Shown: piece by piece, positions 5,252 to 38,387 of the stretch
How positions within the stretch are numbered: position 1 is the stretch's first letter
How the letters are laid out: the number at the start of each line of letters is the position of its first letter
Notes under the pieces: model-generated
Told to the model about the DNA's origin: nothing
What the model saw: the letters and a program-made list of their open reading frames with translations, nothing else
Databases searched by the model: none
From: Patescibacteria group bacterium
GTDB lineage: Bacteria > Patescibacteriota > Patescibacteriia > Buchananbacterales > SURF-54
Reading direction: 5' to 3'
NCBI GenBank assembly: GCA_018818885.1
Contig: JAHIRB010000018.1
Location: forward strand, 5,041 to 69,040
Length of the DNA stretch: 64,000 nt
Program-made: the position numbers and the translations under genes

Positions 5252-7264
5252 ATGGATCAAAAACAACTAGATCAACTTTCCATTAACACAATTCGTTTTT
5301 TAGCAGTAGATGCAGTGCAAAAAGCCAATTCAGGACACCCAGGTTTGCCTATGGGAGCAGCACCAATGGCTTATACTCTTTGGACTAAGTTTTTAAGTCA
5401 TAACCCAAATAATCCCGAGTGGCTAAATCGGGATAGGTTTATTTTGTCTGCTGGGCATGGATCAATGCTGTTATATTCTTTACTCCATTTGACTGGGTAT
5501 GACATACCTTTAAGTCAGATTAAACGATTTCGTCAATGGGATTCTAAAACACCTGGTCATCCTGAATACGAAATTAAATCAGGCATTGAAACTACAACCG
5601 GTCCATTAGGCCAAGGTTTTGGTAATGGAATTGGTATGGCAATAGCGCAAAGGTATTTATCAAACCGATATAACAAGCGTGGATTTAAATTATTTGATTA
5701 TTATATTTACAGTATTGTTTCAGACGGTGATTTAATGGAAGGAGTGTCGTCAGAAACAGCTTCTATGGCTGGTAACTTAAAATTAGGCAAGTTGATATAT
5801 TTATATGATGATAACGACATATCAATTGAAGGATCAACGAACATAACTTTCACAGAAGATGTTGCTACTAGATTTAAGGCATTTGAATGGCACGTTCAAA
5901 AAGTCAATGATGGAAACAATATCAAAGCAATTGAGGGTGCAATAGAAAAAGCAAAAAAGGACAACCGGCCATCCATCATTATTATCAAAACAACAATAGG
6001 TTATGGTAGTCCAAATAAAGCTAATACTGCTTCTGCCCATGGTGAAGCTTTGGGAGAAGAAGAGGTAGAATTAACCAAAGAAAATTTAAACTGGCCAAAG
6101 GAACCAGCATTTTACATTCCAAAAGAAGCTTTAGAACATTTCAGAACAGCAGTAGAAAAAGGTCATAAACAAGAAAAAGAATGGAACGAAATGTTGAAAG
6201 AGTATAAAAAGAAGTATCCTACCTTGGCAAAAGCATTAGTTACTTTAAAACCACAAAGGTTACCAGTTGGTTGGGCAAAAAAACTATCAGAATATTCTGC
6301 AAAAAAAGATCCAGTTGCTACTCGTGTAGTTTCAGGGGAAGTTTTGAATATTTTAGCTAAGTTTTTGCCAAATTTAATTGGAGGTTCTGCAGATCTAGAA
6401 CCATCAAACAAAACTTATCTAAAAGGTAAAGGAGATTTCAGCGCTAAGACAGCTAACAGAGAAACTCACAACTTGCATTTTGGAGTGAGAGAGCACGGCA
6501 TGGCTGCAATTTTAAATGGAATCGCATTGTCAAAACTAGTAATCCCCTATGGCGGAACATTTTTGATATTTTCAGATTACATGCGGCCATCAATTAGGCT
6601 GGCAGCTTTGATGGGGCTACGCGTAGTTTATGTATTTACTCACGATTCTATTGGTTTGGGAGAAGACGGGCCAACACATCAACCAATTGAGCAGTTAATG
6701 GCTTTGCGGGCTATCCCTAATATGACTGTTATACGTCCAGCAGATGCTAACGAAACCGTACAAGCGTGGAAAGTAGCAATAGAAAATACAACAGGCCCAA
6801 CAGCTATATGTCTAACACGTCAAAGTTTACCAATCATTGACCAAAAAACCTACTCGTCAGCCAAGAATTTATCAAAAGGTGCATACATACTTAATCCCAA
6901 AGTAAAAAATCCAGATATTATTCTAATAGCAACAGGATCTGAAGTGCAATTAGCTATGGAAGCATCAGAAAAATTATCCCCCAAAGTCAACGCTAGAGTA
7001 GTAAGCATGCCAAGCTGGGAGTTGTTCGAAAAACAACCACAAAGTTATAAAGATAAAGTTTTACCTCCAGAAGTAAAGTCAAGACTAGCAATTGAAGCAG
7101 GAGTTACGCAGGGTTGGTATAAATATGTTGGCGATAAAGGTGATATTATCGGAATAGATAAATTTGGTGCTTCAGCGCCAGGTAAAGTTGTTATGAAAAA
7201 ATACGGGTTTGGTTTAGCAAATGTTGTAAAAAAAGCCAGAGAGATTATTAAAAAGAATAAATAA
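5252..7264 (+). CDS. tkt: transketolase
   Basis: GHPGLPMGAAPMAYTLW thiamine-diphosphate motif and full-length homology. Start chosen at the internal Met (MDQKQL) by alignment to known Tkt N-termini; the ORF track starts at 5234. Confidence 0.9.
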   Translation: MDQKQLDQLSINTIRFLAVDAVQKANSGHPGLPMGAAPMAYTLWTKFLSHNPNNPEWLNRDRFILSAGHGSMLLYSLLHLTGYDIPLSQIKRFRQWDSKTPGHPEYEIKSGIETTTGPLGQGFGNGIGMAIAQRYLSNRYNKRGFKLFDYYIYSIVSDGDLMEGVSSETASMAGNLKLGKLIYLYDDNDISIEGSTNITFTEDVATRFKAFEWHVQKVNDGNNIKAIEGAIEKAKKDNRPSIIIIKTTIGYGSPNKANTASAHGEALGEEEVELTKENLNWPKEPAFYIPKEALEHFRTAVEKGHKQEKEWNEMLKEYKKKYPTLAKALVTLKPQRLPVGWAKKLSEYSAKKDPVATRVVSGEVLNILAKFLPNLIGGSADLEPSNKTYLKGKGDFSAKTANRETHNLHFGVREHGMAAILNGIALSKLVIPYGGTFLIFSDYMRPSIRLAALMGLRVVYVFTHDSIGLGEDGPTHQPIEQLMALRAIPNMTVIRPADANETVQAWKVAIENTTGPTAICLTRQSLPIIDQKTYSSAKNLSKGAYILNPKVKNPDIILIATGSEVQLAMEASEKLSPKVNARVVSMPSWELFEKQPQSYKDKVLPPEVKSRLAIEAGVTQGWYKYVGDKGDIIGIDKFGASAPGKVVMKKYGFGLANVVKKAREIIKKNK

Positions 7265-10877: not shown

Positions 10878-11798
10878 ATGATTAAAATTTATAAGAAGAC
10901 AGTTAAAGAAGCAGAACTAACCGAAGTAAATGATTTTATTTTGGGTTCTTGGGTTAGAGTTGTGGATCCAACCCAAGAAGAAGTTCAATTGTTGGCAGAT
11001 AAAACTGGCATTGCTTTAGATATTTTGGAAGACGCGGTTGATGAAGCAGAGCTACCTCGTATTGAATACGACCAAGGTAACCTCGTAGCTATTATTCGTG
11101 TCCCTGTGTCTAATGGTGATGGTGTTACGTCGATTCCTTTAACAATTATTATCACCAATAGATACATCGTTACGATTAGTATCAAATCTAATGAAATTAT
11201 TAAATTGTTTTTAGAAAATAAAATTGAATGCTTTACAACACAGAAGTCCAAATTTTTATTAAAGATTTTAGATCAAACTAATCGTTCATACGACAAATTG
11301 ATCAAAGGGATTTCAAAAAATATTAGTAGACAAAAATACAAGCTTGATAGTTTAAAAAATAAAGATATTTTTAATTTAGTACAACAAGAAGAAGTTTTGA
11401 ATAATTTTATTTCTTCCTTGGTTCCCAATTCCAATGTTTTTGATAGAATTTTAAAGGGAAAATATTTAAAATTATACGAACAAGACGAAGAATTAGTAGA
11501 AGATTTACTTATTGATGTACGACAGGTTATTGATCTATGTAACACCAACATCAAAACTATTAAAAACGTTCGTGAAGCATACCAAACTATACTTTCGAAC
11601 AACTTAAATAAGTTATTGAAGTTTTTGACATCAATTACCATAATCTTGACTTTGCCGACAATAATTGCTAGTATCTACGGAATGAATGTTGAGCTGCCAG
11701 GCGGCGGATCTCATTTTGCATTTTATTATATAGCGGGATTTACTATTATTGTTATGGCAGCAGCCTACGCAATATTTAATTGGAAAAAGTGGTTGTAA
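10878..11798 (+). CDS. corA: CorA-family Mg2+/Co2+ transporter
   Basis: 306 aa, a cytoplasmic domain then two C-terminal TM helices with YGMNV (GMN motif). Second CorA paralog in the window. Confidence 0.85.
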   Translation: MIKIYKKTVKEAELTEVNDFILGSWVRVVDPTQEEVQLLADKTGIALDILEDAVDEAELPRIEYDQGNLVAIIRVPVSNGDGVTSIPLTIIITNRYIVTISIKSNEIIKLFLENKIECFTTQKSKFLLKILDQTNRSYDKLIKGISKNISRQKYKLDSLKNKDIFNLVQQEEVLNNFISSLVPNSNVFDRILKGKYLKLYEQDEELVEDLLIDVRQVIDLCNTNIKTIKNVREAYQTILSNNLNKLLKFLTSITIILTLPTIIASIYGMNVELPGGGSHFAFYYIAGFTIIVMAAAYAIFNWKKWL

Positions 11799-12251: not shown

Positions 12252-12254
12252 TTT

Positions 12255-12340
12255 GCGGGTATAGTGGTTTATTGTCACTCTCAGCCGCAGAGAGCGGGTA
12301 TAGTATAATGGCTTATTATGTCAGCCTTCCAAGCTGAAGA
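12255..12340 (+). pseudogene. two truncated 5' copies of tRNA-Gly (through the D-arm and through the anticodon arm)
   Basis: GCGGGTATAGTGGTTTATT... and GCGGGTATAGTATAATGGCTTATTATGTCAGCCTTCCAAGCTGAAG match the downstream tRNA-Gly up to the anticodon stem, then diverge. No T-arm. Confidence 0.45.
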
Positions 12341-12380
12341 TTAAACAATTAAAAAATAATATTTTCATCGTGTATTAAGA

Positions 12381-12453
12381 GCGGGTGTCGTATAGTGGTT
12401 TATTATGTCAGCCTTCCAAGCTGAAGAGGGCGGTTCGATTCCGCTCACCCGCT
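12381..12453 (+). tRNA. tRNA-Gly (anticodon TCC)
   Basis: Acceptor GCGGGTG/CACCCGC, anticodon arm TCAGC-CTTCCAA-GCTGA, T-arm GGCGG-TTCGATT-CCGCT. The flanks extend the acceptor helix to 14 bp (ATTAAGAGCGGGTG...CACCCGCTCTTAAT). Folded by hand. Confidence 0.75.
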
Positions 12454-12542
12454 CTTAATACGGGATTTTGGATTCCCGCCTGCCCCGTAAACGACTCTGA
12501 GTTTATCGAATAGAGTTTTACGGGGTTACCCGCTCCATGATA

Positions 12543-12568
12543 AAAGCCCCTTAAAACGGGGCTTTTGT
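12543..12568 (+). terminator. intrinsic terminator AAGCCCC-TTAAAAC-GGGGCTTTT
   Basis: 7-bp GC stem plus a T-run. Preceded by a longer hairpin CCCCGTAAA...TTTACGGGG at 12484-12526. Confidence 0.5.
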
Positions 12569-12595: not shown

Positions 12596-13321
12596 TTATT
12601 TAATATTATTCCAAAGATGCTGAATCATTGTTTTGTGCGTATCAGCAATATCTTTATCTTCAATAATCACACCCATTAGGTTATTTAAAGAAACCATAGT
12701 TGTTTTGTTATCAAATACTAAGATATCTGTAGCTATCTTAAAACTACGAGGTAAAAACTTAGTTTCACTTAGTCCCGTTCTGTATTTTTTTTGTGCATAT
12801 TCTCTGGCTTTTTTACTTTCCTGCATTAAATCATAAATAATACCTCCCTGACGATTCAAGATATTAAATAGATGTCTGTTTTCTTTCTCTGTAAAAACAT
12901 CAGAATAATTATCAAATGAAAACATAGACCAAATTTCTTTTGATCTAAAGACTTCCTCATACATTTTAGTAAGTCTATCTTTGCCTTCATAAAATCTTAC
13001 TTTAGGTTGTTTTGAGCTTTTTTGGTATATAGATTCTAAGTCTGGCAGAATATCCTTAATTTTTTCCTTTTTTTCTTCTAAATACTCAATTAGCTTACTG
13101 GGCTTTTCAGCTTTATAGTGTGTAATAGTCCCAGAGGGAATAGATATTAAAAGATTCTTTTTTAATAATTCTTCAATAATAAGATAAGTGGTGGGTCTTT
13201 TTAGACCCGCCCTTTTTGATAATTGGGTGATAGAGCATGTGCCTAAGGTTAAAGCAGCCAAATAAACGTTGGTTTCCTTATCGTTTAAGCCAAATTGTTG
13301 AAGGATAGTTTCTTTTTCCAT
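12596..13321 (-). CDS. TrmB-family transcriptional regulator (paralog 1)
   Basis: N-terminal winged HTH (NVYLAALTLGTCSITQLSKRAGLKRPTTYLIIEELLKKNLL) typical of TrmB. 241 aa. Confidence 0.7.
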   Translation of the reverse strand: MEKETILQQFGLNDKETNVYLAALTLGTCSITQLSKRAGLKRPTTYLIIEELLKKNLLISIPSGTITHYKAEKPSKLIEYLEEKKEKIKDILPDLESIYQKSSKQPKVRFYEGKDRLTKMYEEVFRSKEIWSMFSFDNYSDVFTEKENRHLFNILNRQGGIIYDLMQESKKAREYAQKKYRTGLSETKFLPRSFKIATDILVFDNKTTMVSLNNLMGVIIEDKDIADTHKTMIQHLWNNIK

Positions 13322-13472
13322 ATATTTAATCTTTATATCAGTTTAGCATAATTTTACTAAAATGTCAAGATTTCTGACGAATTTATAAAAAAAAATAGCA
13401 GGTTTTATAAATCTATTGTATGATGCAAAGTTAAAATTAACAGTACATTGAAAACTAAAAATGAGGTAGAAA

Positions 13473-13880
13473 ATGGGTGAGATAATTTTAACAGAAGGCG
13501 AAGAAAACTGTGTAAACAATATAGTTGGCGAGCTATTCTTTCATGTCCGAAAGGGTACGCTCACACACGGTATGGGAAAGGGGGTATTTCAGAGAAACTG
13601 TATTCATGAGATAGACTGCCACTGGTCAGATCGGGGGTGTATCGACATCAGTATGAGCGAATACGTCAGCGAGATTAACACCAACATGCTTTTAATCTTG
13701 TTTGCAGTTGTAAACAAGATTACTGCAAAACACTCAGTGCATGTTAGCCTTAGTTTTCCTTCTTGGGAAGAACTAAATGCTAACAGGTCACAACCTCCAC
13801 CACCAGATACTTTCTGGATGGAAGCGCTTGCCAGTCAGGGAGAGCCTGAACAGGTAACGGAGGAAGATTGGAAGGAATAA
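13473..13880 (+). CDS. Cys/His-rich small protein (SD-bearing small-ORF class), divergent from TrmB paralog 1
   Basis: 135 aa. GAGGT SD. Cys/His cluster (C13, H24, H32, C43, H45, C49, H50, C56). GC-richer than its surroundings. Own terminator at 13911-13948. Confidence 0.45.
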   Translation: MGEIILTEGEENCVNNIVGELFFHVRKGTLTHGMGKGVFQRNCIHEIDCHWSDRGCIDISMSEYVSEINTNMLLILFAVVNKITAKHSVHVSLSFPSWEELNANRSQPPPPDTFWMEALASQGEPEQVTEEDWKE

Positions 13881-13910
13881 AAAGAATATGTTTCTTTAAG
13901 GGAGGTGATA

Positions 13911-13948
13911 TAGAGACTCATTAAGTATTATAATGGGTCTCTTTTTTA
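13911..13948 (+). terminator. intrinsic terminator AGAGACTCATTAAGTATTATAATGGGTCTCT plus T7
   Basis: GAGAC/GTCTC stem followed by TTTTTTATTTT. Confidence 0.5.
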
Positions 13949-13979
13949 TTTTAGAATTTATGCACAAACTTAATCTTAA

Positions 13980-14007
13980 TTCATCACCACAGTTCTAATA
14001 TCATTGA
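13980..14007 (+). repeat. 28-bp direct repeat copy 1 (CAGTTCTAATATCATTGACTAACCCGCT)
   Basis: Copy 1 of four near-identical copies downstream of consecutive plus-strand ORFs. Ends in ACCCGCT, identical to the tRNA-Gly 3' acceptor core. Confidence 0.6.
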
Positions 14008-14089
14008 CTAACCCGCTTGGCGAAAAGCTGTCCCTACAGGACGGTTTTTTGCTTACACTGAGTTTGCCGAAGTGGTATACTGAAAGTGT

Positions 14090-14485
14090 ATGAAAAAAAT
14101 TTATTTCTTAATATTAATTTTCTTTTTCTTTAACATTATCAATAATGTAGAAGCACTTTTTGTAGATTTTATTGATATGCCGTACAGTCCCGAATATGAG
14201 CATTGTTTTAATAAAGAAGGATACCAGTGTATAGGGATTTATTATGCCAACGGACCTTGCAAAGGCACTGAAGATGTAGATAAGTATTGTATTAAAAAAT
14301 CTGATTCGAAAATTGTGAAATTGTATAAAGAAAAAAAGTTTATGCTAATAAAATTCAAAAATAGGGTTTTTAGTGATATAAAACGCAATCCCGCATCTTC
14401 AGCAGGAATAGCTATTACTATACTATTAGTTATATATTTAATTTTTAGTATCATAAAAAAAAAGTTAAATAAGATAAAAAAATAA
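14090..14485 (+). CDS. hypothetical secreted/membrane-anchored Cys-containing protein
   Basis: 131 aa with a signal peptide, a 6-Cys ectodomain and a C-terminal TM anchor plus K-rich tail. Confidence 0.45.
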   Translation: MKKIYFLILIFFFFNIINNVEALFVDFIDMPYSPEYEHCFNKEGYQCIGIYYANGPCKGTEDVDKYCIKKSDSKIVKLYKEKKFMLIKFKNRVFSDIKRNPASSAGIAITILLVIYLIFSIIKKKLNKIKK

Positions 14486-14516: not shown

Positions 14517-14544
14517 CAGTTCTAACATCATTGACTAACCCGCT
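14517..14544 (+). repeat. 28-bp direct repeat copy 2 (CAGTTCTAACATCATTGACTAACCCGCT)
   Basis: 27/28 identical to copy 1. Followed by the terminator CACTCCC-CTAAA-GGGAGTG-TTTTT. Confidence 0.6.
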
Positions 14545-14592: not shown

Positions 14593-15978
14593 ATGAATTT
14601 AATATTACTAAGTTTGGCTGTAATCGTCATTCTTTATTTCACAATTAACCCTTCAAAGAAATGGAAAGTGGCTTTTAATATGGCCACTGTTTCCATTGCA
14701 GCTTTAATTGTTTTATTATTGTTGAAAGTTATTGATATCGAAACAATCATTTCTGGCATCATCGGCACTAATGGAATTGAGCCTTGGAAGGTTTTAGTTA
14801 TATTTTTTAGCGTTGCTTACGTAAGCGTGAGTACAGATGTAACTGGTATTTTTGATTATATAGCATATAGGTTAGTAAGATTAGCAAACGGTGACGGTAT
14901 TAAGCTTTTTTTGTTTTTTTATTGCTTTGCAGGATTCTTAAGTATATTTACTTCTAATGATATTGTTATTTTAACTTTGACTCCGATCATTTTTTATTTA
15001 GGCAAACATGCAAAGATAAATATTATTCCATTATTGTTTGCGGAGTTTTTTGCTGCCAACACCCTTAGTATGCTGTTGTATATTGATAATCCTACAAACA
15101 TTATAATGGTTAATGCGCTAGGGATCGGGTTTGTAGAATATTTGTCAGTCATGTGGCTTCCAACCTTGGTTGCAGCAATTGTTAACTATATATTGTTATA
15201 TTTAATATTTAGAAAACAAATAACTAAAAAATATAATTTAAATGAGAATTCTGAGTTTACAGTAAGAAATAAATTAGACGCCACAATAAGCAGTACATTG
15301 ATGATCGCAATGTTTATTTTTTTAGTATTATCAGACAGTATGGAATTTTCTATTTGGAAAATAACATCTATTTTTGCTATGTTGTTTATAATAGAAGATA
15401 TTTTATTTAGTTTATATTATCAAAGAAAATCACGACAATTATCAGCACCACAACTTGATAAACGAGAAGTCGTGTTAGGTATACCGAAAGAAAAAAATGA
15501 ATTTTGGTTAGCAATAAAGCGTGTACCTTGGAAAATATTACCATTTGTAACAGTTTTTTTTATTTTGGTTTATCATTTAAGTCACATAGGTGTTATTGAA
15601 AGTATAAGTGAGTGGTTATCTGCTGGATCAAATTCTCTTCTGTCGAGTATTGGCTTAAATGGTGTGGTAGCTTTCATCAGTGCGAACATAATTAACAATC
15701 AGCCAATGGCAATTTTGTATTCTTATGTATTTACAAATGCAAAATTAACATTACAAGGGATTGAATTGCGGGGGGCAGTTTATGCAGTTATAATTGCTAG
15801 TAATTTAGCTGCAAATTTTACAATAATAGGTGCTTTGGCAGGCCTAATGTGGAAGAAAATATTAAAAGACAAAGGAGTTCAAATATCATATTTTGATTTT
15901 ATAAAAAAAGGTATTGTAATAACGCCGTTGGTTTTTGTAGCAACATTGGCTACACTCTATGTAATACTTCAGTTCTAA
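14593..15978 (+). CDS. ArsB/NhaD-superfamily anion permease (arsenite efflux pump ArsB-like)
   Basis: 461 aa polytopic protein. CFAGFLSIFTSNDIVILTLTPII...AANTLSMLLYIDNPTNIIMVN aligns to ArsB SNDATALLMTPI...AANVGS...PIGHPTNLVMV. Confidence 0.75.
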   Translation: MNLILLSLAVIVILYFTINPSKKWKVAFNMATVSIAALIVLLLLKVIDIETIISGIIGTNGIEPWKVLVIFFSVAYVSVSTDVTGIFDYIAYRLVRLANGDGIKLFLFFYCFAGFLSIFTSNDIVILTLTPIIFYLGKHAKINIIPLLFAEFFAANTLSMLLYIDNPTNIIMVNALGIGFVEYLSVMWLPTLVAAIVNYILLYLIFRKQITKKYNLNENSEFTVRNKLDATISSTLMIAMFIFLVLSDSMEFSIWKITSIFAMLFIIEDILFSLYYQRKSRQLSAPQLDKREVVLGIPKEKNEFWLAIKRVPWKILPFVTVFFILVYHLSHIGVIESISEWLSAGSNSLLSSIGLNGVVAFISANIINNQPMAILYSYVFTNAKLTLQGIELRGAVYAVIIASNLAANFTIIGALAGLMWKKILKDKGVQISYFDFIKKGIVITPLVFVATLATLYVILQF

Positions 15979-15997
15979 TATCATTGACTAACTCGCT
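15970..15997 (+). repeat. 28-bp direct repeat copy 3 (CAGTTCTAATATCATTGACTAACTCGCT)
   Basis: Overlaps the last codons and stop of the permease gene. 27/28 identical to copy 1. Confidence 0.6.
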
Positions 15998-16200
15998 GTT
16001 TGTATTTATTTTCACCTTCCCCTCCTACACTTCTCGTTTCACTCGAAGTTTTGGAGGGCAGGCAAGTTTACCTGCCGAATCCGCCAGAGGCGGAGAAGGC
16101 AGGCTGAAAATATGGGTTCTGCGCCAGGGGCGCACCAGCCTGGCTGGAATTCCTCTTCACACGCTTTTGACTAGATCATCGCCGAAAGGGTGGTTTTTTA
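15998..16200 (+). other. GC-rich multi-hairpin element (candidate structured RNA or decayed GC-rich repeat) ending in a T-run
   Basis: Consecutive short hairpins CCCTCC..GGAGGG, GGCAGG..CCTGCC, CCGCCAGAGGCGG, TGCGCCAGGGGCGCA and CCAGCCTGGCTGG, then GGGTGGTTTTTT. The ORF 15984-16208 called here is probably spurious. Confidence 0.35.
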
Positions 16201-16831: not shown

Positions 16832-16859
16832 CAGTTTTAATATCATTGTCTAATTTGCT
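16832..16859 (+). repeat. 28-bp direct repeat copy 4, degenerate (CAGTTTTAATATCATTGTCTAATTTGCT)
   Basis: 22/28 identical to copy 1, immediately after the yafQ stop. Last copy before the PurD-like gene. Confidence 0.5.
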
Positions 16860-31122: not shown

Positions 31123-31863
31123 ATGGAAGCAAAAAAAATAAAACAAATTATCAAAGATAAATATGGCAAAATTGCTAATTCGAATGCCGGTTGTGGCTGC
31201 CAATGCAGATGTAATGATAGCGAAGATATTTCGAAAGAGATTGGATATAGCCAAGAAGAAATTAACAATGTGCCAGAAGCAAACCTAGGCCTTGGTTGCG
31301 GTAATCCCATAGCACATAGTCGAATAAAAGAAGGTGATGTAGTGCTAGATTTGGGAAGTGGAGCAGGATTTGATTCTTTTTTGGCAGCAAAAAAAGTAGG
31401 TCCAGCCGGAAAAGTCATCGGAGTCGATATGACACAAGAAATGCTAAATAAAGCTAAAGCGAACGCCAAAAAGTATAATTATGATAACGTAGAGTTTAGG
31501 CTTGGTGATATCGAAGATCTGTCAGTTGAAGATAATATGATAGATGTTATCATTACTAACTGCGTAATTAATTTAGCACCAGACAAACTAAAAGTTTTCA
31601 AAGAAGCTTACAGAGTATTAAAAAAAGGTGGCAGAATGTATATTTCTGATATTGTGTTACTTAAGCAATTAACCCAAGAACAACGAGATAACGAAGAGCT
31701 GGTAACGGGTTGTATTGGGGGTGCAATGCTAAAAGATGAATATATAGAAACAATTAAAAAGTCAGGCTTTGAAGTCAACGTATTAAACGAAGATAAGGAT
31801 ATTAGCAAAAAACAATATCAAGGTTTACCGCTTGTGAGTTTATCCATAGAAGCAATCAAGTAA
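31123..31863 (+). CDS. arsM: arsenite S-adenosylmethionine methyltransferase
   Basis: Three conserved Cys (CGCQC...C) and a class-I SAM motif. LGCGNP...VLDLGSGAGFD...GVDMT...NCVINLAPDK matches the ArsM consensus. Confidence 0.85.
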   Translation: MEAKKIKQIIKDKYGKIANSNAGCGCQCRCNDSEDISKEIGYSQEEINNVPEANLGLGCGNPIAHSRIKEGDVVLDLGSGAGFDSFLAAKKVGPAGKVIGVDMTQEMLNKAKANAKKYNYDNVEFRLGDIEDLSVEDNMIDVIITNCVINLAPDKLKVFKEAYRVLKKGGRMYISDIVLLKQLTQEQRDNEELVTGCIGGAMLKDEYIETIKKSGFEVNVLNEDKDISKKQYQGLPLVSLSIEAIK

Positions 31864-31984: not shown

Positions 31985-32752
31985 TTATTTATAAGGCTTT
32001 GATAATTTCCAAATCGAATCAAATTGTGTTTTCATCATTTCAGCCAGTTCAGCACTTTCTACTAGAAAACCAAAATTTTCTTTACTTGAAGAAATAAATC
32101 GTACACTATTACCATAAATTGCATAGCCGAGCGAGAAATCTACTTCGGCTGGAGCAATTTTTGCATCTCTTTTGGATTCGGTTCCTGTTTTAGAATAGGG
32201 ATATTTTTTTATTGAAGAAATTTCGTTTTGCGGCCAAATTACTTTTATATTAATGTTTCGTTTTACTCTTTCTTTATGAAAAGATGTTAAGAATTCACCT
32301 GAGAGTAGTTTATTTAATTTTATAACAGGCCAGTATGCATAGACAGTTATATCTCTAAACAATAACATATCTTTCATCATCTGCTGTAATTCTTTCTTCC
32401 CCTCATAAATTTGCATTCTTGGTTTAGAAGATGTTTTTTGAGATAAATATTCTGATTGTAATATGTCCAAAGCAATTTTGGCTTTTTTTAATTCTTTTTC
32501 TTTTTCTTCAATTAGTAAATGTAGTTTTTCTGGTGGACAAGCAGCAAACATCTTTACACCACCTTTTTGCGTTTCAAAAACTATACCAATTTCGATTAGC
32601 CTTTCTAACAAATCATAAACTGAAGTTCTGCTAATTTCAGATTGTTTAGCTAGTTGAGTAGCAGACATTTGCCCGCCGTAAAAAAGTTTTTGGTATAAAT
32701 CAAGTTCAATTTTTCTTAAGTTGAATATTGAGAGTAGAGTTGCTATTTTCAT
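31985..32752 (-). CDS. TrmB-family transcriptional regulator (paralog 2)
   Basis: N-terminal wHTH LDLYQKLFYGGQMSATQLAKQSEISRTSVYDLLERLIEIGIV. 255 aa. Convergent with arsM and divergent from the small Cys-rich ORFs. Confidence 0.7.
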   Translation of the reverse strand: MKIATLLSIFNLRKIELDLYQKLFYGGQMSATQLAKQSEISRTSVYDLLERLIEIGIVFETQKGGVKMFAACPPEKLHLLIEEKEKELKKAKIALDILQSEYLSQKTSSKPRMQIYEGKKELQQMMKDMLLFRDITVYAYWPVIKLNKLLSGEFLTSFHKERVKRNINIKVIWPQNEISSIKKYPYSKTGTESKRDAKIAPAEVDFSLGYAIYGNSVRFISSSKENFGFLVESAELAEMMKTQFDSIWKLSKPYK

Positions 32753-32763
32753 ATATTTTAATG

Positions 32764-32786
32764 ATGTCGTGGAATTGTCACGACAT
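32764..32786. promoter_or_regulatory. 8-bp-arm palindrome ATGTCGTG-N7-CACGACAT in the divergent promoter region (candidate operator)
   Basis: Perfect dyad between TrmB paralog 2 and ORF 32870. Confidence 0.3.
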
Positions 32787-32788
32787 AG

Positions 32789-32817
32789 TTTACAATATCA
32801 CAATTAAACATTAAAGT
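32789..32817 (+). promoter_or_regulatory. candidate promoter TTTACA-17-TAAAGT
   Basis: TTTACA at 32789-32794, TAAAGT at 32812-32817. Confidence 0.3.
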
Positions 32818-32869
32818 CAAGAGTTGAACGTTGACAATTGGTTGAGTGGTAAAGGGAGGTATGTATATT

Positions 32870-33130
32870 ATGTACAAAACAATAGGGGCTTCATTATTAG
32901 CATTTCAAATGGGTATGGTGTTTAATGTCGAACTGTTTCATAAAAAGACAGGAGTGTGGCTTGATAGTCTTGAACAAATCGATGAATACCGATCCGGACT
33001 GAAAGTTGAGGAAAGATGTTACTTCGACGTATTCGTAATCCAGAAGAGAGCTCAAATTGATGTGTTAGGACTTGAAGAAGACGAAGTGAAAAAAGTTTTT
33101 CAAGTCATAAAGGCTTGTTTTTCAAAATAA
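32870..33130 (+). CDS. small protein of the SD-bearing small-ORF class
   Basis: GGGAGG SD at 32854-32859. The ATG at 32870 has the best spacing; the ORF track's longer 32846 start was rejected. About 86 aa. Confidence 0.4.
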   Translation: MYKTIGASLLAFQMGMVFNVELFHKKTGVWLDSLEQIDEYRSGLKVEERCYFDVFVIQKRAQIDVLGLEEDEVKKVFQVIKACFSK

Positions 33131-33181
33131 CTTCTCAAATAATTGTTTTAGGACGAAGTGAATGAAAATGGAGATGATAAA

Positions 33182-33610
33182 ATGCCAAAGAAGGAGTCAA
33201 AGTTTAAGGACTGGGGCGTACAACCACATCAGGGTATGAGACACAATTGGGACGTAACTAGTTGCCCACATTGTAATCATGATTTTAATCAATATAGGAT
33301 GTTGTATTGTAGATTCATAGTAGGATTCACTACGAAAGAAGAATATAGAAGGCCTACATACGATGGGACAAAAATTGTAGGATTTTATGCAGAGGGAGCT
33401 GTTATTTTAGAATGTCCAAAATGTTTTGAGCATTCATGGATTCACAGTTGTGGCACTACCAGGCAGTTATTTGATGCGACAGAAGATGACGATAATTTCC
33501 TTTTAGTCCCTGGAGCAAAGGAGGCTTTTTTGAGAAGTGTAAAGAAAAAGTCGAAAAAGAAACCGACCAAAAAAAAGCTAAAGAAAAAATTGGTTAAGAA
33601 GAAGAATTAA
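33182..33610 (+). CDS. zinc-ribbon small protein with a Lys-rich tail (SD-bearing small-ORF class)
   Basis: CPHCNH...CPKC four-Cys ribbon and a C-terminal KKKSKKKPTKKKLKKKLVKKK. GGAGA SD 7 nt before ATG 33182; a GTG start at 33158 is also possible. Confidence 0.45.
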   Translation: MPKKESKFKDWGVQPHQGMRHNWDVTSCPHCNHDFNQYRMLYCRFIVGFTTKEEYRRPTYDGTKIVGFYAEGAVILECPKCFEHSWIHSCGTTRQLFDATEDDDNFLLVPGAKEAFLRSVKKKSKKKPTKKKLKKKLVKKKN

Positions 33611-33619
33611 ATCTATATA

Positions 33620-33651
33620 CCGCCTGAAAAGTAATATCAGGCGGTTTTTTA
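33620..33651 (+). terminator. intrinsic terminator CCGCCTG-AAAAGTAATAT-CAGGCGG plus T6
   Basis: Perfect 7-bp GC stem and TTTTTT. Confidence 0.55.
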
Positions 33652-33687: not shown

Positions 33688-33693
33688 ATCTAA

Positions 33694-33835
33694 GATGCGC
33701 GCAGAGGGACCCCCTTCGATTTACTCAGGGTAAGCGAACCCCCGCCTGTCCTCCGAATCCACCTCCGGCGGAGTAGGAGGAACCGTTTGCTTAACCCCGT
33801 ACAATGCTCGCGTGAGCTCGCATATACGGGGCAAG
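33694..33835. other. GC-rich hairpin cluster adjacent to tRNA-Lys
   Basis: Hairpins CTCCGGCGGAG, TCCTCC..GGAGGA and CCCCGTA...TACGGGG. Shares short GC modules with the other GC islands in the window. Confidence 0.3.
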
Positions 33836-33858
33836 GAGTCAACAATTTTTCATTTCTT

Positions 33859-33932
33859 TGCGCCCAGAGGGATTTGAACCCCCGACCATTTGCTTAAGAG
33901 GCAACTGCTCTACCAGCCTGAGCTATGGGCGC
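33859..33932 (-). tRNA. tRNA-Lys (anticodon CTT)
   Basis: rc GCGCCCA-TA-GCTCAGGCTGGTAGAGC-A-GTTGC-CTCTTAA-GCAAA-TGGTC-GGGGG-TTCAAAT-CCCTC-TGGGCGC-A. Folded by hand. Confidence 0.75.
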
Positions 33933-34009
33933 ATAATTAATGTGATTAATAGTTATGTAGATATTTTGGGTTGAGTGTACAAATGATAAACGATGAAAAA
34001 TAAAATAAT

Positions 34010-34038
34010 GCGGGTCTACCAGGCTGAGCTATGGGCGC
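34010..34038 (-). pseudogene. truncated 5' fragment of tRNA-Lys (acceptor plus D-arm only)
   Basis: rc GCGCCCATAGCTCAGCCTGGTAGACCCGC, about 90% identical to the 5' 27 nt of tRNA-Lys and lying 5'-upstream of it. Confidence 0.4.
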
Positions 34039-34064
34039 ATATTTAAGAGGACTATTATTATAAG

Positions 34065-37349: not shown

Positions 37350-37568
37350 ATGCCTACATATATAGCATTTGAGATAATACAAGAAGGAGGTATGGCAGCA
37401 GAAATAATCGATAAAGCAGATAGTATAATGGAAGCGGTTCAAAGAACCAAAGTAGTTCGGCTTTATGCAGTCAAACTGTTGGGTGATTGTCCTGGACATG
37501 ATTTTATGCCAGCACAAAGTGATTGTGGAATCACAGAATTTTGTCAGATTTGCGCAGAGATCAGATAA
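37350..37568 (+). CDS. small Cys/His protein with one copy of a CPxH...CxICxE domain
   Basis: 72 aa. AAAGGGGGT SD 5 nt upstream. VKLLGDCPGHDF...EFCQICAEI. Confidence 0.5.
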   Translation: MPTYIAFEIIQEGGMAAEIIDKADSIMEAVQRTKVVRLYAVKLLGDCPGHDFMPAQSDCGITEFCQICAEIR

Positions 37569-37587
37569 TTAGAACAGGGGGGTATTG

Positions 37588-37953
37588 ATGAATGGCAAAA
37601 ATCTTGAACTTCAAAACCAGAATGAGAACATAAAACATGCGGGTTGGTGGGGCATAGCCTCATGTCTTATTTTCTCAGCAGCATTGTTGTATTATATTTT
37701 TGCTCTTATATTTAATATACTCTCGGTTTTTGAAGCAAGAGAGGAAGGGCAATATTATACAGCTTATGCTATTTTGTTTGCCATCTTCTTTTTACTCGGT
37801 TGGGTAATCAGTATGATTGGCACAGTTGTTGGATTCTATGGATTGTGTCAGAGTCACAGGAAAAAAATGTTTGCCGTTATTAGTACAATTCTCAACTCGT
37901 TGATTTTTTGGGGAACTATCGTACTATTTTATTGGGCGTCGAAGTTCAACTAA
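37588..37953 (+). CDS. small 4-TM membrane protein, middle gene of the operon
   Basis: GGGGGG SD. About 121 aa with four hydrophobic helices. Confidence 0.45.
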   Translation: MNGKNLELQNQNENIKHAGWWGIASCLIFSAALLYYIFALIFNILSVFEAREEGQYYTAYAILFAIFFLLGWVISMIGTVVGFYGLCQSHRKKMFAVISTILNSLIFWGTIVLFYWASKFN

Positions 37954-37970
37954 ACAAGGAGGAGATTTAG

Positions 37971-38387
37971 ATGCCAGAATTTAGTGTTCATGTAGTGTTG
38001 AGCGCAAGTACATTTAAGAATGCATTAAAAATGGCCATTCGTGACGGTTGTCCTGGCGCTCCCGAAGTCGTGATAATTGGAGGATGCCCAGATCACAAAA
38101 TCGAACCTCCAGAACCATCTGCACCATATTCCTTAGAGTTGTCTTTTTGCCGGATATGCGGCGAAAGAAGCATGAGTGATAATCCAATGCACGTATATCA
38201 AGCAGAACGAGAAGACAACGTGCGTAGTATCGGCGCACACTCTTTCAGAGATGCTGTGGAAACAGCGAAAGTCGCATTGGGAGGATCTGTTGAGGTAAAA
38301 CTCGTAGGAAAATGCCCCAAGCATAAGTTCGTACACTTGGATGCTCCGATTAACGAGGTTTGCGAAATTTGCGGGCACATGCAGTAG
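37971..38387 (+). CDS. small Cys/His protein with two tandem CPxH...CxICxE domains
   Basis: 138 aa. AAGGAGGAG SD 6 nt upstream. IIGGCPDHKI...FCRICGE and LVGKCPKHKF...VCEICGH repeat the domain of ORF 37350. Confidence 0.5.
   Translation: MPEFSVHVVLSASTFKNALKMAIRDGCPGAPEVVIIGGCPDHKIEPPEPSAPYSLELSFCRICGERSMSDNPMHVYQAEREDNVRSIGAHSFRDAVETAKVALGGSVEVKLVGKCPKHKFVHLDAPINEVCEICGHMQ

Follow-up and report, generated by a model that had tools for sequence, protein, structure and literature searches.

Two TrmB-like regulators and their predicted palindromic operators in a Patescibacteria genome

Archaeal TrmB proteins bind palindromes at promoters. A site at or downstream of the promoter goes with repression and an upstream site with activation, and some archaeal members regulate their own genes (PMC4158304). 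Here, two genes of this family are described in a 64,000-nucleotide stretch of contig JAHIRB010000018.1 (assembly GCA_018818885.1) from a Patescibacteria group bacterium, referred to below as the window. TrmB1, at locus 1 (12.6 kb), is divergent from a small open reading frame (ORF), orf135, and TrmB2, at locus 2 (32 kb), is divergent from two others, orf94 and orf150. As judged from the sequence and position of their putative operators, both proteins are probably dimeric regulators that act locally on their own genes, each by binding its own palindrome. Transcriptional regulation is poorly known in Patescibacteria, whose genomes are small, and conserved pairs of operator and regulator are now testable in these unculturable organisms.

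A preliminary description of the window had read the two loci as a duplicated module: at each, a metal(loid)-responsive TrmB-like regulator and a small Cys-rich protein would adjoin arsenic-related genes. The basic layout of locus 1 given there holds: the coordinates, the strands, the Shine-Dalgarno motif and the higher GC content of the 135-codon ORF were confirmed, and the shared divergent region, put at about 150 bp, measures 151 bp (13322-13472). The window sequence is also present in ENA and Logan assemblies, and the GC content of the contig is ~0.30-0.38.

TrmB1, TrmB2 and their operators

Both regulators match the TrmB family of Pfam (PF01978, cut-off 25.6 bits), TrmB1 with 39.5 bits and E 5e-10 over residues ~7-75 and TrmB2 with 48.4 bits and E 9e-13 over residues 7-75. 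The TrmB1 profile also matches residues 7-157 of Pyrococcus furiosus TrmB (3qph) with E 1e-6. The scores against the NCBIfam equivalogs for TrmB, TrmBL1 and haloarchaeal TrmB are ~15-30 bits, with cut-offs of 500-650, and the TrmBL2 model gives 25.5 bits against a cut-off of 530. With 241 and 255 aa, the two proteins are ~100 aa shorter than the 342-aa chain of 3qph, to which the alignment extends no further than residue 157. In length they are closer to TrmBL2 of Thermococcales (~262-264 aa; PDB 5bpd and 5box; profile match E 8e-6), which shares their overall layout and likewise lacks a full sugar-binding domain. TrmBL2, a chromatin protein and global repressor, is abundant and binds widely to coding and intergenic DNA (PMC4158304). 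The locus 1 regulator belongs to a known family, in an uncharacterised bacterial clade. Members of this TrmB-like family carry a winged helix-turn-helix at the N-terminus, which a coiled-coil linker joins to a C-terminal domain of ~130 aa. The family is widespread in Patescibacteria and comprises paralogous ortholog groups; in the window, it is represented by these two genes only. No sugar-metabolism genes occur within the divergent units.

TrmB1 has ~40 relatives at 42-76% identity in other Patescibacteria and many more at 25-36%, and TrmB2 has orthologs at 49-60%. The two share 24% identity with each other (E 2e-13), although their groups are homologous over the full length (hhalign probability 99.6%, 22% identity, 245 columns). 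Because each is much closer to its own orthologs than to the other, sequence comparison identifies them as old paralogs in separate ortholog groups of one family.

The predicted TrmB1 promoter is the top promoter match of its region (10/12, a consensus match only). The operator O1 overlaps its -35 box, and the right half of the palindrome is the TTGACA of that box. The O1 consensus is yGTCA-N7-TGACr, and its core is invariant in all nine aligned upstream regions of the TrmB1 group, in which 28-54 nt separate the end of the site from the start codon. No second copy of the core lies in the 64-kb window. With a weight matrix, O1 scores 24.9 bits and the next best site of the window 9.7. A nearby AT-rich inverted repeat, which adjoins a candidate -35 box of orf135, was also considered as an operator. 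It lies in an AT-rich spacer and was rejected because it is not kept in orthologs.

At locus 2, where the divergent spacer measures 93 bp, the perfect palindrome O2 comes directly after the -10 box predicted for TrmB2. It is kept as TGTyGTG-N7-CACrACA after a TAnTGT -10 box in all distinct upstream regions of TrmB2 orthologs, and no other site of the window comes within fewer than three mismatches of it. An alignment for operator dyads shared between the two loci had been proposed as a check; the motifs differ, each with a single occurrence in the window, and the regulons are therefore taken to be separate. These single, conserved sites argue for specific binding, unlike that of TrmBL2. They also differ from the archaeal operators TACT-N3-AGTA and TATCAC-N5-GTGATA, and the predicted promoters are of the bacterial sigma-70 type.

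The divergent arrangement is a trait of the family. On the fetched loci, a divergent upstream neighbour was found for 78 of 94 TrmB-like genes (83%), compared to 290 of 864 other genes (34%; Fisher p 1e-20). That the same layout recurs at both loci is therefore no sign of duplication.

In the proposed model, TrmB1 would bind O1 over its own -35 box and occlude RNA polymerase, and TrmB2 would bind O2 just past the -10 box and block initiation or promoter escape. Set against the archaeal pattern, these operator positions fit autorepression. Both operators lie in a shared divergent spacer, and each regulator probably also modulates the opposite gene. O1 is centred ~60 bp ahead of the probable start site of orf135, a distance that fits activation or repression of this gene. 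A ligand, if there is one, would act at the C-terminal domain and release or alter DNA binding.

Several points weigh against this model. The promoter assignments at both loci are consensus matches only, and the divergence statistic was obtained with a crude home-made gene caller. In the window, orf135 has no second O1 site close by. Three orthologs (L003, L004 and L084) do have one, a weaker one, on the side of the divergent gene, so that TrmB1 control of orf135 is unproven. The C-terminal effector-binding domain of TrmB (PF11495) has no match in TrmB1 or TrmB2 in the Pfam scan, so that the sensor role of their C-terminal domain is an assumption only. Moreover, no paper in the searched library was found to link TrmB with Patescibacteria or the candidate phyla radiation.

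The divergent partners

The gene facing TrmB1 is fairly likely to encode a protein. A well-placed Shine-Dalgarno motif (GAGGT, 13463-13467) ends 5 nt ahead of the first ATG of orf135. An open frame of 135 codons at this base composition has an estimated chance of ~1e-4 per frame. The in-frame codon score (-0.14) is above that of the five other frames (-0.58 to -0.96), and the same order holds for each half of the ORF. The stop codon is followed by an intrinsic-terminator-like hairpin, and orf135 is therefore considered a single-gene transcription unit.

The alternative is that orf135 is non-coding and that the GC-rich segment 13460-13950 is a structured RNA or a decaying foreign remnant that keeps an open frame. 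This is the less probable explanation, yet one that several observations favour. A search of 5.8 billion clusters returned only orf135 itself, an exhaustive phmmer search of 1.84 billion representatives returned orf135 and two tandem-repeat artefacts, and no homolog was found among ~15 billion proteins. Relatives were also absent from viral contigs and phage DNA, from the Pfam, NCBIfam, PHROGs and PADLOC libraries, and from the neighbourhoods of TrmB1 orthologs. In 80 TrmB-like loci of species-representative genomes, no homolog of orf135 lay within 5 kb, nor one of the permease, arsM, orf131, orf94 or orf150. The GC content of orf135 is 0.44, against ~0.30 in neighbouring genes and ~0.30-0.35 in the genome, and its GC content at third codon positions is likewise foreign (0.44; mean of window genes 0.27 +/- 0.06). 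Its codon score is ~1.6 sd under that of typical genes (0.14 +/- 0.17). The RNA fold is unusually stable, with z = -3.4 and several hairpins of 10-17 bp, and ranks second among 28 coding segments tested, after the first 408 nt of the CorA gene (10878-11285, plus strand; z = -4.7). A single-sequence AlphaFold2 model reached a mean pLDDT of 58.5, and none of its Foldseek matches in the PDB was better than E 0.08 (TM-scores <=0.39). Finally, the NCBI annotation (P0001) covers residues 61-135 only, i.e., 75 codons. This shorter version excludes all four Cys, which lie within residues 13-56, and no Shine-Dalgarno-like motif precedes its internal start, in contrast to the first ATG. As for a structured RNA, Rfam gave no match to the region even at E <= 1. 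Sequence composition and the database searches thus describe orf135, whether coding or not, as compositionally foreign and found in this organism only. Most likely, the sequence was recently acquired or has recently arisen.

The label "Cys/His" given earlier to the orf135 product fits in part. Its Cys and His content of 7.4% (4 Cys, 6 His) puts it at the 95th percentile of window proteins, an enrichment that is moderate and not strong. Of the two small ORFs that face TrmB2 within 31985-33610, both initially called Cys-rich, orf150 deserves the name (6 Cys, 6 His; by Cys+His content at the 97th percentile of the window) and orf94 does not (2 Cys, 1 His; 65th percentile). A search for orf94 homologs that was limited to the fetched loci, without the large protein databases, found none. 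No similarity was found among orf135, orf94 and orf150.

In contrast to orf135, orf150 has relatives beside other TrmB-like genes. Its sole database relative, P0076, contains the orf150 domain twice in tandem, with 38-39% identity per copy. The P0076 locus shows a TrmB-like gene on the minus strand followed by a small ORF and the orf150 homolog on the plus strand, and is flanked by rpsB/tsf and ruvA. The domain is divergent from TrmB-like genes in L090-94, L100/101, L107 and L108, i.e., in at least four other lineages. TrmB2 orthologs in L100/L101, L107 and L108 face one or two genes with the domain, and none was found opposite the orthologs in L099, L102 and L105 (the upstream sequence of L103 is too short). 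In an alignment of seven domain copies from five loci, C36, C39, C86 and C89 are invariant and form two CxxC motifs ~46 residues apart. The other invariant positions are W19, G20, M27, H29, D32, P37, G56, F57, G80, E85, P87, F90, H96, V117 and E122. The family signature reads WG..P..M.H..D...CP.C ... (I/V)VGFS ... ECP.CF ... H ... VPG..E, and a Lys-rich tail is specific to the window copy. Curated zinc-ribbon and zinc-finger families, such as DNL/Tim15, YnfU and HVO_2753-like proteins, gave sub-threshold matches only (E 0.002 to 0.5), which fall on the CxxC motifs, and no viral relatives were found. An AlphaFold2 model from a three-sequence alignment (mean pLDDT 47.5) was too poor for a fold search. 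On the basis of this alignment, orf150 can be assigned to a small, new family with four invariant Cys that recurs beside TrmB-like genes. The pairing of a regulator with a small Cys-rich protein is real at locus 2, and nothing ties this pairing to metal(loid)s.

In one relative of this arrangement (L091), the spacer between the TrmB-like gene and the operon with the orf150 homolog is 414 bp long (2268-2681) and contains several long perfect inverted repeats, e.g., GAGTGCTGTCAGGTACG...CGTACCTGACGGCACTC.

The neighbours of the wider family are diverse, as 55 of the 78 divergent neighbours have no relative among the others. The genes opposite TrmB-like regulators are lineage-variable accessory genes. 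The largest cluster consists of 395-480-aa homologs that face six TrmB-like genes (L031, L036, L041, L043, L052 and L054), and several of these loci are from Peregrinibacteria or Peribacteria. By their N-terminal sequence, without a family search, these proteins seem to resemble class I aminoacyl-tRNA synthetases of the TyrRS/TrpRS type. TrmB1 orthologs always face small ORFs, which are unrelated to orf135 and encode membrane peptides in L003, L004 and L087. The orthologs in L083 and L084 are divergent from homologous ORFs of 72-73 aa (2097-2318 and 5616-5834, respectively, both on the minus strand). Their products, which give weak Pfam matches to Frankia_peptide and LigA and are similar to leader peptides of the NHLP type, could serve as precursors for ribosomally synthesised peptides controlled by the TrmB-like proteins.

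A co-occurrence of TrmB-like regulators with small Cys-rich proteins, which had been proposed as a check, is seen for the orf150 family and as a slight excess overall: the median Cys content of small divergent neighbours is 2.3%, compared to 1.4% in other small ORFs (p 0.004). A general rule of Cys-rich partners was rejected, since the excess is small and two CxxC motifs occur in none of the 30 small neighbours.

Neighbouring features and alternative readings

The features of both loci are listed in Table 1. Downstream of orf135 lie orf131 and a permease on the same strand, followed by a DUF6364/YafQ pair. The hairpin between the 3' ends of tRNA-Gly and TrmB1 is probably a bidirectional terminator for both, as suggested by its adjoining A-run and T-run. 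Between the permease and the DUF6364/YafQ pair, ~200 nt of GC-rich sequence (15995-16200, plus strand) are strongly structured (fold z = -4.2), end in a terminator-like hairpin and may represent a small RNA. A second GC-rich segment, of ~155 nt (33690-33845, minus strand), adjoins tRNA-Lys (33858-33933, minus strand) and has predicted stem-loops of moderate stability only (z = -2.2). Rfam matched neither segment, nor the spacers. Some 100 nt upstream of tRNA-Lys, between it and tRNA-Arg, 24 nt (34017-34040) repeat the 5' end of tRNA-Lys. Farther on, the interval between the gyrA and L32 genes contains three successive small ORFs of 72, 121-122 and 138 aa (37350-38387, plus strand), unusually rich in GC (up to 0.46) and without Pfam matches.

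Table 1. Features at and around the two TrmB-like loci, in window coordinates
Feature	Position	Strand	Description
Partial 5' copies of tRNA-Gly	12253-12290, 12294-12367	+	Upstream of the intact gene
tRNA-Gly(UCC)	12381-12454	+	ARAGORN, Rfam; 3' end faces TrmB1 3' end
Hairpin between A-run and T-run	12542-12566		AAAAGCCCC-TTAAAAC-GGGGCTTTT; read from sequence
TrmB1	12596-13321	-	241-aa TrmB-family winged-helix regulator (PF01978) with family-conserved C-terminal domain
Predicted TrmB1 promoter	13340-13368	-	-35 TTGACA 13368-13363, 17-nt spacer, TG-extended -10 TAAACT 13345-13340
Operator O1 (putative)	13362-13380		Palindrome TCGTCAGAAATCTTGACAT (- strand); core GTCA-N7-TGAC at 13364-13378
AT-rich perfect 10-nt inverted repeat	13381-13412		ATTTATAAAA-N12-TTTTATAAAT; adjoins candidate orf135 -35 box (13395-13400)
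orf135	13473-13880	+	135 aa, without homolog; GC 0.44
Intrinsic-terminator-like hairpin and T-run	13912-13950 (hairpin 13912-13942)	+	3' of orf135
28-nt direct repeat	13990-14017, 14517-14544, 15970-15997, 16832-16859	+	CAGTTCTAATATCATTGACTAA(CCCGCT); 4 matches, 0 expected
orf131	14090-14485	+	Hydrophobic N-terminus, hydrophobic C-terminal stretch, 4 Cys; no family match
Permease	14593-15978	+	ArsB/CitMHS (ion transporter) superfamily; not confirmed ArsB
arsM-family methyltransferase	31123-31863	+	Convergent (tail to tail) with TrmB2
TrmB2	31985-32752	-	255-aa TrmB-family regulator (PF01978), separate ortholog group
Operator O2 (putative)	32765-32785		Perfect palindrome TGTCGTG-N7-CACGACA
Predicted TrmB2 promoter	-35 32820-32815, -10 32797-32792	-	-35 TTGACT, -10 TATTGT; consensus match only
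orf94	32846-33130	+	86 aa from ATG at 32870, as in public gene calls
orf150	33158-33610	+	Member of undescribed small four-cysteine family
Terminator-like hairpin and T-run (inferred)	33620-33650	+	CCGCCTGA-N9-TCAGGCGG, 3' of orf150; read from sequence

A rather unlikely explanation for locus 1 as a whole is that it forms the tRNA-proximal end of an accreted island, or cassette array, at tRNA-Gly. TrmB1 would be the resident regulator, and segments bounded by a 28-nt repeat would hold TrmB1 with orf135, orf131, the permease and a toxin-antitoxin pair. Four same-strand copies, where none is expected, follow orf135, orf131, the permease and the DUF6364/YafQ pair in this order, each just after a transcription unit and ahead of a terminator-like hairpin; copy 3 includes the TAA with which the permease gene ends. 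The 3' end of copies 1 and 2, CTAACCCGCT, equals the tRNA-Gly 3' end, CTCACCCGCT, at nine of ten positions, and these are the sole such sites in the window. Partial copies of tRNA-Gly stand beside the intact gene; one of them is 92% identical to it over 50 nt and has a weak tRNA score (26 bits, E 0.012). Furthermore, TrmB1 orthologs and variable small ORFs are found between or beside tRNAs in L004 (3556-5852) and L087 (4037-10196), with tRNA-Thr(CGU) and tRNA-Gly(CCC), and in L003 (2018-3923), with tRNA-Leu. A tRNA-Gly lies 3' of the TrmB1 orthologs in L004 and L087, and in L004 the two 3' ends face each other as in the window. No conservation of the cargo was seen, and the composition of orf135 is foreign. 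Against an island, the annotated gene tables that cover this region list no integrase, recombinase or transposase, and the repeats lack the hairpins of integron attC sites. Their tRNA-like part is only 10 nt long and is decayed in copies 3 and 4, and searches of other fetched loci and of viral contigs did not recover the repeat. At locus 2, the 3' end of tRNA-Lys is not repeated in a comparable way, and the position of TrmB1 beside tRNA-Gly may be plain inherited gene order.

A wider version of this idea seems very doubtful. It takes the 4.4 kb from tRNA-Gly to 16860 as four mini-cassettes that end in a 28-nt repeat mimicking the tRNA-Gly acceptor end. Cassettes would accrete in Patescibacteria with a recombinase encoded elsewhere, the TrmB-like family would be the resident regulator of hypervariable cargo, and orf150-type genes would be its recurrent partners. 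Separately, an island at tRNA-Lys was considered for locus 2 and rejected, as no repeat of the tRNA 3' end lies on the far side. A phage or defence origin was also rejected; there were no PHROG matches, and the PADLOC matches concerned the generic winged helix only.

The position of arsM and of the ArsB-superfamily permease near these loci is probably coincidental, and the statement that both loci adjoin arsenic-related genes holds in part. The permease, earlier called ArsB-like, is two transcription units downstream of the TrmB1-orf135 pair, beyond the orf135 terminator and orf131. Its strongest Pfam match is CitMHS (E 9e-45; ArsB, E 7e-32), and three NCBIfam ArsB models give it 166, 145 and 143 bits, with cut-offs of 457, 760 and 415. 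Within 4-5 kb of the TrmB1 and TrmB2 relatives examined, neither arsM nor an ArsB-like gene was found, and the Pfam scan showed no helix-turn-helix of the ArsR type.

A duplicated, metal(loid)-responsive module is very unlikely, and for locus 1 it is not supported. Both outcomes that had been named as refuting it were observed there: the two regulators are not closer to each other than to other TrmB-like proteins, and orf135 is conserved nowhere else. TrmB1 and TrmB2 each contain one Cys, conserved in neither group, which argues against thiol or metal sensing by the regulators themselves. The nearest precedent for such a sensor is OxsR of Haloferax volcanii (PMC9426492), a PF01978 protein described as a thiol-based regulator of oxidative stress. 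OxsR is a single winged-helix domain, and TrmB1 and TrmB2 have a further C-terminal domain.

The arsM-family gene is real: it passes NCBIfam NF008823 with 313.8 bits against a cut-off of 263, a membership assigned by profile score. It is convergent with TrmB2.

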